Shown piece by piece: positions 51,913-52,140 of a stretch of DNA of 56,158 nt. This DNA is from an uncultured bacterium (GTDB taxonomy: Bacteria; Patescibacteriota; JAHJAL01). How positions within the stretch are numbered: position 1 is the first letter of the stretch; every line of letters starts with the position of its first letter. A model generated the notes under the pieces. That model did not search any database, was not told the DNA's origin, and was given only the letters and a program-made list of their open reading frames with translations. The stretch lies in contig CALKWM010000003.1 in assembly GCA_938004065.1 (NCBI GenBank), positions 1-56,158 of the forward strand, in the 5' to 3' direction. The translations under genes and the position numbers were made by a program.

Positions 51913-52066
51913 TGGACCTTAAAGGGACTTGAACCCATGACCTGTCCGACGGTCGCCTTGCGGCTCGTCGGACCGCTCTAGCCAATAAATGGACCTTGAA
52001 GGGACTTGAACCCATGACCTGTCCGACGGTCGCCTTGCGGCTCGTCGGACCGCTCTAGCCAATAAA
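51913..52066 (-). repeat. two tandem 77-nt tRNA-Ala-derived units lacking the 5' acceptor/D-stem strand and carrying a 30-nt hairpin in place of the anticodon arm
   Basis: Each unit reads TTTA TTGGCTAGAGCG [GTCCGACGAGCCGCAAGGCGACCGTCGGAC] AGGTC ATGGG TTCAAGT CCCTT CAAGGTCC A. The period is exactly 77 nt. Confidence 0.85.
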
Positions 52067-52140
52067 TGGACCTGAAGGGACTTGAACCCATGACCTCTTG
52101 CATGCCATGCAAGCGCTCTAGCCAACTGAGCTACAGGCCC
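52067..52140 (-). tRNA. tRNA-Ala(GGC)
   Basis: GGGCCTG TA GCTC AGTTGGCTA GAGC G CTTGC ATGGCAT GCAAG AGGTC ATGGG TTCAAGT CCCTT CAGGTCC A. The G3-U70 identity pair is present and no CCA is encoded. Confidence 0.9.

Follow-up and report, generated by a model that had tools for sequence, protein, structure and literature searches.

Two tRNA-like units behind a tRNA-Ala gene belong to a class of palindrome-substituted tRNA pieces that is linked to a GIY-YIG nuclease gene in Patescibacteria

Results

Two partial tRNA copies with a substituted anticodon arm follow tRNA-Ala

The stretch analysed here, called the window throughout, is positions 1 to 56,158 of contig CALKWM010000003.1 (assembly GCA_938004065.1) from an uncultured bacterium of the Patescibacteriota; L numbers denote loci from other genomes. 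On its minus strand, the genes run in the order UvrC, a Phage_holin_4_2-family membrane protein, tRNA-Ala(GGC), two tandem 77-nt tRNA-like units, a terminator-like hairpin, alanine racemase (alr) and an ABC-F protein. The two units are the subject of this study. The finding is real and non-random, and the units probably are the nuclease-less footprint of a widespread, apparently undescribed variant of homing-endonuclease cassette that resides at tRNA genes.

tRNA-Ala(GGC) is predicted by ARAGORN and scores 64.6 bits against the tRNA family of Rfam (coordinates of all features in the window are given in Table 1). Alignment to this tRNA shows that each unit consists of TTTA, TTGGCTAGAGCG, GTCCGACGAGCCGCAAGGCGACCGTCGGAC, AGGTCATGGGTTCAAGTCCCTT and (C/T)AAGGTCCA. 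The segment TTGGCTAGAGCG, which is the D-loop with the 3' strand of the D-stem, and the segment AGGTCATGGGTTCAAGTCCCTT, which is the variable loop with the T-arm, are identical in the units and in tRNA-Ala. The 3' acceptor strand of the units carries one extra A (CAAGGTCCA or TAAGGTCCA, versus CAGGTCCA in tRNA-Ala), and the 17-nt anticodon arm CTTGCATGGCATGCAAG is exchanged for the 30-nt hairpin GTCCGACGAGCCGCAAGGCGACCGTCGGAC. Both units start in the D-loop and are without the 5' acceptor strand and the 5' strand of the D-stem; they differ from each other at a single base. Tandem Repeats Finder reports the array with a period of 77 nt at 51910-52096 (2.4 copies, 98% matches, score 360), the 0.4 copy being the variable loop, T-arm and 3' strand of tRNA-Ala itself. 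The hairpin 30-mer occurs in the window only at these two sites and in none of 100 shuffles, and it is predicted to fold into an 8-bp stem, an inner 3-bp stem and a GCAA loop (-18.4 kcal/mol, z = -4.2).

An earlier reading of this DNA from its sequence only (hereafter the sequence-only reading) had described the boundaries of the units, the parts that they keep and the swapped arm, and the alignment agrees with that description throughout. Its statement that the units cannot be normal tRNAs is likewise borne out, since the 5' acceptor strand is absent and the units are called neither by ARAGORN nor by any Rfam family, even at E<=10. At this threshold, the locus yields no Rfam matches other than the true tRNA and 13-nt stretches of T-arm similarity to tmRNA. 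The acceptor stem, the D-stem and the 5-bp anticodon stem with a 7-nt loop of a canonical tRNA are all missing from the units. A permuted, split or intron-containing tRNA was considered and rejected, as no complementary 5' acceptor strand is found anywhere nearby and the 20 nt within the GTCCG/CGGAC stem have neither U33 nor other anticodon-loop features. By inspection, the inner loop of the hairpin fits neither a K-turn nor a bulge-helix-bulge motif.

The unit array is real, as the same two-unit sequence is present in an independent assembly (ENA ERZ724098, NODE_405). In another assembly (ERZ724101) the contigs break inside the repeat. The copy number is at least two and could exceed two.

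The units are members of a large class of tRNA pieces

One genome per species (GTDB representatives, 596 Gb in all) was scanned with the pattern TAGAGCGGTCCG-N5-35-CGGACAGGTC. The scan returned 109 matches in 86 stretches, where about 2 are expected by chance (22 fixed bases, 31 spacings, 596 Gb). Removal of a few true tRNAs, most of them Val-CAC tRNAs whose anticodon stem is GTCCG/CGGAC, and of 3 chance matches in high-GC coding DNA left 104 pieces in 78 sources, the two units of the window included. The carriers are labelled mostly as Patescibacteria (Uhr-, Ames-, Shapiro-, Levyi-, Gottesman-, Woese-, Davies-, Chisholm-, Kuenen-, Kerfeld- and Peregrini/Peribacteria, Saccharibacteria, Absconditabacterales and Kazan); some are metagenome-assembled genomes (MAGs) labelled Gammaproteobacteria. 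The search for tRNA scaffolds of the GTCCGAC...GTCGGAC type in related genomes, an idea of the sequence-only reading, thus uncovered about 100 pieces in species representatives. The same reading had viewed the units as a one-off candidate structured RNA, a view that gives way to membership in a large class tied to a GIY-YIG gene (see below). Palindrome-substituted tRNA pieces form a widespread class that apparently has not been described.

The family palindrome that replaces the anticodon arm, drawn from 60 distinct arms, is GTCCGAYG(n0-3)CRTCGGAC. Beyond the 5 pairs that the pattern forces, 119 pairs are Watson-Crick versus 28 that are not. Between the stem halves lie 6, 8 or 9 nt, rarely 7 (for example ATGGCCAT, ATGGACAT, ACGTACGT, ATGTACAT, ATGTNACAT and ACGTNACGT), and many of these centres are self-complementary as well. 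The hairpin of the window is the family palindrome GTCCGACG...CGTCGGAC with 14 nt put in at its centre. Central inserts of 12-20 nt are also found in L058, L060 and L073, and the hairpin is extended in L060 and L073. The sequence-only reading had described the substituted arm as a GC-rich GNRA hairpin. The defining part is not the GNRA mini-hairpin but the outer palindrome GTCCGACG/CGTCGGAC that the roughly 100 pieces have in common, and the GCAA portion is a lineage-specific central insert. The units of the window conform to the class in their other features: their palindrome lies between TAGAGCG and AGGTC, and their flanks come from the adjacent tRNA on the same strand, downstream of which they lie. 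Their 5' flank matches tRNA-Ala at 12/12 bases, and the palindrome begins 16 nt past the tRNA.

Arrays are also present in L054 (4 x 76 nt), L013 (2 x 110 nt), L071, L087 and L036, and genomes that have two loci tend toward one palindrome type (L014/L055, L019/L032, L041/L080). A scan of metagenomes with GTCCGACG-N10-20-CGTCGGACAGGTC gave 57 matches, all of them chance matches in high-GC coding DNA and none in a tRNA context, and a scan of viral contigs with the family pattern gave 0 matches.

Most pieces are copied from the neighbouring tRNA gene

Each piece was compared with the nearest intact tRNA. Pieces that lie upstream of the tRNA (5' pieces) match its whole 5' part, often together with the leader, over 26-59 nt, and past the palindrome they match over only 5-20 nt. 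Pieces that lie downstream (3' pieces) match over 7-20 nt before the palindrome and then over all of the 3' part, for up to 80 nt with the trailer counted in. The identity between piece and tRNA is mostly 100%. The most frequent host is tRNA-Val, followed by tRNA-Ala, tRNA-Ile, tRNA-Arg and tRNA-Asp. A probe that is blind to the palindrome, the local D-arm 12-mer, showed that nearly every extra D-arm site near these tRNAs leads into a palindrome; it also caught variants beyond the scan pattern, such as TCCCGACG...CGTCGGGA, and produced one clear case only, L063, of a duplicate that has kept its native arm. The arm is bordered by TAGAGCG on its 5' side and by AGGTC on its 3' side, and the pieces share these bases with the host tRNAs. 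Because a recombination or conversion tract that ends in shared flanks looks exact, the exact-looking swap of the arm needs no special mechanism.

Some pieces, in L031, L034, L048 and L062, differ from the adjacent tRNA. In a trio of Saccharibacteria loci (L048, L062 and L068), what the pieces retain is the acceptor stem or the T-arm of an "old" tRNA-Arg(GCG), and the intact tRNA differs. The old tRNA-Arg gene of L048 has the palindrome as its anticodon arm, and within the D-loop of this disabled gene lies an intact tRNA-Arg(GCG) with another acceptor stem, between inverted repeats of ~18 nt. This arrangement hints at an incoming tRNA copy that replaces the resident gene.

Other arms can be affected in addition. 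In L054, L018, L072, L073 and L094, the T-loop or the T-arm as a whole is altered or has given way to a similar palindrome. GC-rich hairpin inserts are found in the D-loop, T-loop or acceptor region of pieces in L014, L022, L056, L059, L065, L075, L091, L158 and L160, from families that include CCCGAT..ATCGGG, CCTGCC..GGCAGG and TCCGCC..GGCGGA. These inserts suggest that the palindrome in the anticodon arm is one case of a broader pattern of loop capping.

The pieces are linked to a GIY-YIG nuclease gene

Many 5' pieces run directly into an open reading frame (ORF) that starts with M..(G/F)VYIL. A hidden Markov model built from these ORFs detected the GIY-YIG gene 57 times across loci L009-L098 but not in the window. 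A nuclease gene on the same strand lies within 150 nt of 54 of the 104 pieces, and 44 of 77 loci have a nuclease gene within 500 nt of a piece; for 15 of the 33 loci without the gene, every piece is near a contig end. Within the same loci, a nuclease gene is found within 100 nt of 47 of the 86 tRNAs that have a piece, versus 10 of the 67 other tRNAs.

The order is 5' piece, gene, tRNA and 3' piece in L013, L051, L054, L084 and L097, and tRNA, gene and 3' piece in L015, L016, L030, L047, L073, L076 and L094. Both orders are also seen minus the nuclease gene. The ORF starts 1-14 nt past the 3' end of the tRNA or right behind the G-rich strand of the T-stem, and its stop codon is often a TAG that is part of tRNA sequence, either the one at tRNA positions 8-10 or the one in the D-loop, 4 nt ahead of the palindrome. 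The palindrome is located 4 nt past the nuclease stop or 12-40 nt ahead of its start. At the junctions between tRNA and 3' piece that have no nuclease gene (n=15, in other loci), the palindrome starts 13-60 nt past the tRNA, and with the ORF present this distance is ~270 nt or more. The nuclease-less junctions show a clean presence/absence polymorphism of the ORF, and deleted or truncated remnants, such as that in L008, are rare. The nuclease gene appears to be expressed from the tRNA transcript.

The nuclease proteins have 81-92 aa and comprise the GIY-YIG domain alone (Pfam PF01541, E = 1e-11 to 1e-17). The catalytic residues Y6, Y17, R27 and E63 are invariant in 21 nuclease sequences, and judged from its residues the nuclease looks catalytically competent. 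The nearest solved structures are those of the UPF0213 proteins 1zg2 (E = 2.7e-7) and 1ywl (5e-6), followed by SLX1, which places the nuclease in the prokaryotic Slx1 branch, the minimal form of GIY-YIG enzymes (PMC1564403). The family is large, with 4547 clusters at 50% identity (E<=1e-3). Many predicted homologues have been called as proteins of 110-150 aa in which the match is at the C-terminal end; gene callers probably extended these ORFs upstream through the tRNA or the piece.

Palindrome type and gene order follow the nuclease clade, and the host tRNA varies inside a clade (Val, Ala, Ile, Arg), which means that the palindrome travels with the gene and that the cassette has moved between tRNA types. 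A second sample consisted of four homologues of the L009 nuclease that were picked by protein identity only. Three of the four are encoded at a tRNA gene with a partial tRNA copy that bears CCGAY...RTCGG hairpins, in the order partial tRNA copy, nuclease gene, intact tRNA. The host is tRNA-Glu in L158, an Ile-like tRNA in L159, where CTCCGACGTACGTCGGAG is found 4 nt past the nuclease stop, and tRNA-Phe in L160, which has two D-loop inserts. The fourth gene, in L156, does not lie at a tRNA. The association of nuclease, tRNA and piece is therefore no artefact of the search pattern, as it is seen in this sample too, small as it is (3/4).

No remnant of a nuclease pseudogene was found near the units or near the tRNA-Asp piece of the window (see below), and a word-indexed search for nuclease homologues returned only 19 proteins, none of them from the contig of the window. 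A tblastn search of GenBank phages with the nuclease gave weak partial matches only, and no phage carrier was found. In L068, the space between tRNA-Arg(GCG) and tRNA-Arg(TCT) is taken by an HNH-type ORF (..EFDHSNP..CANCH..) where L062 has the GIY-YIG gene. tRNA loci thus seem to host more than one endonuclease family.

The orthologous tRNA-Ala locus varies among relatives

The frame formed by UvrC and the holin-like gene on one side and alr and the ABC-F gene on the other is conserved in relatives, and the stretch after tRNA-Ala(GGC) is variable. In L006, whose alr is 82% identical, a plain tRNA-Ala is followed by other genes. In L009 (alr 63% identical), an 82-bp partial tRNA copy lies upstream of tRNA-Ala(GGC) and an 89-aa GIY-YIG gene immediately downstream. 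The copy comprises the leader, the acceptor 5' strand, the D-arm, an anticodon arm, the variable loop and the 5' strand of the T-stem. Its arm is GTCCG-ATGGTAT-CGGAC, versus CTTCC-ATGGCAT-GGAAG in the intact tRNA, and this GTCCG/CGGAC stem is the base of the hairpin in the window. The sister locus L008 has no partial copy, and a deletion has reduced its nuclease gene to the 3' end. L009-L012 all have the GIY-YIG gene at their orthologous tRNA-Ala.

Among relatives, the interval that separates the holin-like gene from alr (51740-52229 in the window) is a variable spot in other respects as well. It holds a 258-aa ORF of no known type and a D-Ala-D-Ala ligase gene in L006, the deleted nuclease gene and a 202-aa ORF in L008, and the nuclease gene and a 243-aa ORF in L009. 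In L010 (GCA_029567205.1, JAKQLK010000090.1), high-GC DNA at positions 1-265 is joined to a low-GC Patescibacteria locus exactly within tRNA-Ala; this contig is probably a chimera formed at the conserved tRNA sequence. The relatives of the alr protein of the window are from MAGs of Patescibacteria (Paceibacteria/Parcubacteria).

The palindrome recurs in the window in a tRNA-Asp piece and in RNase P RNA

The window holds a second member of the class, absent from the sequence-only reading, in the form of a 5' piece of tRNA-Asp(GTC) whose arm is replaced by the palindrome GTCCGACGTTACGTCGGAC (16262-16244). Its stem, GTCCGACG, is equal to that of the tRNA-Ala units. The D-stem base C13 of this piece is changed (GTTCAG to GTTTTAG), similar to the L009 piece. 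The spacer that follows the piece begins with ATGTACATT and could be a relic of the start of a nuclease ORF. In addition, the RNase P RNA gene (rnpB) has four peripheral hairpins built on YCCGAY/RUCGGR stems, one of which, CCCCGACGTTACGTCGGGG, shares 15 identical bases with the palindrome of the tRNA-Asp piece. Within the 56 kb, the motif is restricted to rnpB and the three tRNA pieces, with no intergenic dispersal.

Table 1. Features of the window that bear on the tRNA pieces and their palindromes
Feature	Position	Strand	Remarks
tRNA-Ala(GGC), intact	52067..52140	-	G3:U70; CCA not encoded; found by ARAGORN and Rfam
Unit 1, 3' piece of tRNA-Ala	51990..52066	-	abuts the tRNA, head-to-tail
Unit 2	51913..51989	-	equals unit 1 except for a single C>T in the 3' strand
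Palindrome of unit 1, GTCCGACG [AGCCGCAAGGCGAC] CGTCGGAC	52021..52050	-	family palindrome with a 14-nt central insert
Palindrome of unit 2	51944..51973	-	identical to the palindrome of unit 1
Promoter-like site, TTGAAA-17-TAAAGT with TG	52160..52188	-	upstream of tRNA-Ala; consensus match only
Intrinsic-terminator-like hairpin with T-run	51784..51802	-	~110 nt beyond unit 2
5' piece of tRNA-Asp(GTC)	16233..16290	-	acceptor 5' strand, D-arm, palindrome and AGGTCGCGGGA
tRNA-Asp(GTC), intact	16133..16206	-	source of the 5' piece; 26-nt spacer between piece and tRNA
RNase P RNA (rnpB)	38083..38438	-	
rnpB hairpin	38397..38417	-	core of the tRNA-piece palindrome
rnpB hairpin	38317..38337	-	core of the tRNA-piece palindrome
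rnpB hairpin	38270..38288	-	core of the tRNA-piece palindrome
rnpB hairpin	38117..38135	-	core of the tRNA-piece palindrome

Discussion

The units as the probable empty flank of a homing-endonuclease cassette

The units of the window are probably, with somewhat better than even confidence on our part, the flank or empty site of a homing-endonuclease cassette associated with tRNA genes, in a form that lacks the nuclease and has been amplified in tandem, and not functional tRNA-like RNAs. They would then be DNA-level by-products of a selfish element. In its complete form, this element would have the nuclease gene on the tRNA strand, between the intact tRNA and the palindrome-bearing piece; the locus in the window would represent the nuclease-less state, tRNA followed by 3' piece, tandemly duplicated once. 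The array could be a vacated site or a docking site that was never occupied.

We infer what the nuclease does and where it acts, what the palindrome is for and in which direction events ran, as follows. The nuclease would first break DNA at or beside tRNA genes. Repair through the homology of leader, tRNA and trailer would then copy the cassette into alleles without it, and the same repair would, through gene conversion, stop the pieces from diverging from the resident tRNA and would sometimes make tandem arrays. The palindrome, as a hairpin, cruciform or dyad, would be the cis-acting site of the element, either anchoring the nuclease or being cut by it, and as a side effect it would disable the anticodon arm of the duplicate. 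That the palindrome serves as the cis site of the nuclease is a plausible proposal to which we give rather less than even weight. It is suggested by the covariation of the palindrome with the protein clade, by the concentration of its variation at the centre, which includes half-site hybrids such as ACG...CAT, and by the structure-specific nature of the Slx1 branch. Alternatively, the palindrome may do no more than disable or immunise the duplicate as an inert block, may serve the nuclease mRNA as an RNA hairpin, or may be a palindromic insertion element in its own right.

A wider version of this proposal is tentative. An Slx1-like GIY-YIG nuclease and a palindrome carried in decoy tRNA fragments may together make up a widespread, hitherto undescribed mobile system of Patescibacteria, in which a hairpin or cruciform site and tRNA homology would drive gene conversion. 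In some cases (L048, L062), such a system may replace the tRNA gene itself, bringing a working copy and disabling the resident one, and would thus be hard to lose. The array in the window would then be an empty or vacated docking site, and the hairpins in rnpB would indicate that the role of the motif in genes for structural RNAs is a broader one.

Several observations weigh against the interpretation of the units as the empty flank of a nuclease cassette. The 56 kb of the window contain no GIY-YIG ORF or remnant beyond the N-terminus of UvrC, and the link to the nuclease here comes from relatives. The palindromes are equally perfect without and with a nuclease gene in cis (mean perfect stem 7.71 and 7.73, respectively), which is odd for a decaying relic and could reflect a nuclease acting in trans, a function of the piece or self-correction of the palindrome. 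In simple homing models, the intact tRNA beside the gene would stay a target. The scan pattern itself fixes the outer 5 bp and the flanks, so that the conservation of GTCCG/CGGAC and the exactness of the boundaries are in part imposed. Local duplication is only part of the story, given that some pieces (L031, L034, L048, L062) differ from the adjacent tRNA. Finally, the hairpins in rnpB that have the same core hint at an RNA-level or host-level meaning of the motif.

Alternative explanations

The units might instead be functional structured RNAs from the tRNA-Ala transcript, serving as tRNA-elbow mimics, decoys or stabilising or processing elements with the hairpin as an RNA module. tRNA-Ala and both units are situated between the promoter-like site and the terminator-like hairpin, so the units would be co-transcribed with the tRNA; their T-arm is intact, and the sense strand of the hairpin presents a GNRA loop (GCAA). 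The equal integrity of the palindromes in loci without a nuclease gene and the recurrence of the hairpin core in the RNase P RNA of this genome are in keeping with such a function, and the hairpins that bracket the ORF in nuclease-bearing loci would suit protection of mRNA ends. However, the units have no 5' acceptor strand, no D-stem and no Rfam match, and the fold of a whole unit is no better than that of shuffles (z = -1.7). Across the family, the palindrome is the sole constant, the pieces being 5' or 3' fragments with variable ends, and the T-loop or T-arm itself is altered or replaced in the five loci named above. Where the stems have mismatches, these read on the sense strand as A.C 14 times and as G.U 4 times, the opposite of what selection on a sense RNA would give, and the self-complementarity of many palindrome centres also speaks against an RNA module. 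In the insert of the window, the imperfect inner pair is C.A on the sense strand and G.U on the antisense strand, and the antisense strand folds better (-21.2 versus -18.4 kcal/mol). The variable fragments, altered T-arms and A.C mismatches of the family argue against a tRNA-like RNA function, and we consider a functional RNA unlikely. An array of a Type III toxin-antitoxin system (ToxIN-like) was also rejected, since the array leads to alr and not to a nuclease or toxin gene, and since in the family as a whole most pieces occur singly and are found both before and after the nuclease gene.

Another explanation would make the hairpins small palindromic insertion elements, autonomous or mobilised in trans, akin to repetitive extragenic palindromes (REP), Rickettsia palindromic elements (RPE) or miniature inverted-repeat transposable elements (MITE). 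These would settle in the loops of dispensable copies of structured-RNA genes and in peripheral helices of rnpB, and the nuclease gene would be a frequent neighbour and not the cause. Such elements would account for the CCGAY...RTCGG hairpins that are also inserted in D-loops and T-loops of other pieces, for the four peripheral rnpB helices with the same core, one of them with 15 bases of the tRNA-Asp palindrome, and for the other palindrome families (CCTGCC...GGCAGG, TCCGTCAGCTGACGGA) in further pieces. Yet the motif is limited to tRNA pieces and rnpB in the window instead of being dispersed, and in the arm-substituted pieces the hairpin replaces 17 nt instead of being inserted. The palindrome type tracks the nuclease clade, and the linkage to the nuclease gene is tight, at 4 nt past its stop or 12-40 nt ahead of its start. 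We regard independent insertion elements as quite unlikely. A simple family of dispersed palindromic repeats was rejected, as the many scattered copies that characterise such repeats are not found within the 56 kb.

The 3' parts of tRNA genes are classic integration sites, and the stretch from the holin-like gene to alr differs from one relative to another, but duplication of an att site by a tRNA-targeting integrase or integrative element is very improbable: the neighbours (UvrC, the holin-like protein, alr, ABC-F) include no integrase, the copies abut at a distance of 4 nt without bracketing any island, they extend back into the D-loop and bear a foreign palindrome, and the same architecture recurs with a GIY-YIG gene in place of an integrase. 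The sequence-only reading had likewise judged att duplication unlikely, and on the absence of an integrase and an island and the abutment of the units it holds; its use of the precise swap as a special clue does not, in view of the shared flanks. An assembly artefact, which that reading had named as the finding that would overturn it, is hardly credible, because, although ERZ724101 breaks exactly in the repeat and short-read assemblers mis-size tandem repeats, it is contradicted by the identical two units in ERZ724098 NODE_405, by the single-nucleotide difference between the units and by like pieces and arrays in dozens of unrelated assemblies.

Relation to known systems

The nearest system in behaviour to the proposed cassette is SegB of phages T4 and T6, a free-standing GIY-YIG homing endonuclease whose gene is likewise lodged in a tRNA gene cluster (PMC2330249, PMC13096335). 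SegB is associated with many tRNA isotypes and cuts inside tRNA genes at the T-loop motif RAWTSGAAC (PMC2330249, PMC13096335), and in phage T6 its breaks have been shown experimentally to cause tandem segmental amplification of tRNA and segB by homologous recombination (PMC13096335). In contrast to the nuclease described here, which has 81-92 aa with the catalytic domain only, belongs to the Slx1/UPF0213 branch and is encoded in chromosomes of Patescibacteria, SegB is encoded by phages, has ~220 aa and includes a DNA-binding part, and palindrome-substituted partial tRNA copies are undescribed for it. In mitochondria of Allomyces, a mobile GIY-YIG ORF at the 3' end of atp6 has displaced the end of the gene, which is kept as a partial duplicate. 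As with the cassette here, an essential gene stays intact and a partial terminal duplicate lies beyond the ORF, but the host is a protein-coding gene, and neither a palindrome in place of an internal module of the duplicate nor arrays are known there. The tyrT locus of Escherichia coli has tandem rtT repeats of ~178 bp just downstream of the tRNA gene, each with ~19 nt of tRNA 3'-end sequence. They resemble the units loosely in being tandem, in their position downstream of a tRNA and in containing a tRNA 3' end; they differ in that they are not known to have a copy that runs from D-loop to 3' end, a palindrome or a link to a nuclease gene.

The prokaryotic Slx1/UPF0213 family has been regarded as a vertically inherited repair function, and a fusion to a TrmH-like tRNA methylase has been noted (PMC1564403). 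Its members are the nearest solved relatives of the nuclease and have the same minimal single-domain architecture; unlike the nuclease, they have no described link to tRNA genes (apart from the TrmH-like fusion), to palindromes or to mobility. The SLX1 nuclease of eukaryotes is structure-specific, in keeping with a hairpin or cruciform as the substrate. In the Candidate Phyla Radiation (CPR), rRNA genes have insertions with GIY-YIG ORFs, often at the tips of stem-loops, that are not group I or group II introns (PMC11270868). The bacterial group is the same, and GIY-YIG ORFs are again found in or beside structural-RNA genes, but the hosts are rRNA genes and no association with tRNAs or palindromes was reported (PMC11270868). 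In the literature, of which our coverage was incomplete, we found no description of palindrome-substituted tRNA pieces or of a link between this nuclease and tRNA genes.

Implications

For annotation, the class accounts for recurrent peculiarities beside tRNA genes in CPR genomes: tRNA-like sequences that are broken or supernumerary, breaks in contigs and GIY-YIG genes that are called too long. If the interpretation as a homing-endonuclease cassette is true, the family of ~90-aa proteins of the Slx1/UPF0213 type would gain a setting, as selfish residents of tRNA loci, together with a candidate DNA site. It would also mean a new route of homing beside an essential gene that cannot be interrupted, by way of a partial duplicate capped with a palindrome. 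In these ultra-small bacteria, tRNA loci would then be a hotspot at which gene conversion and the amplification of segments can be measured.

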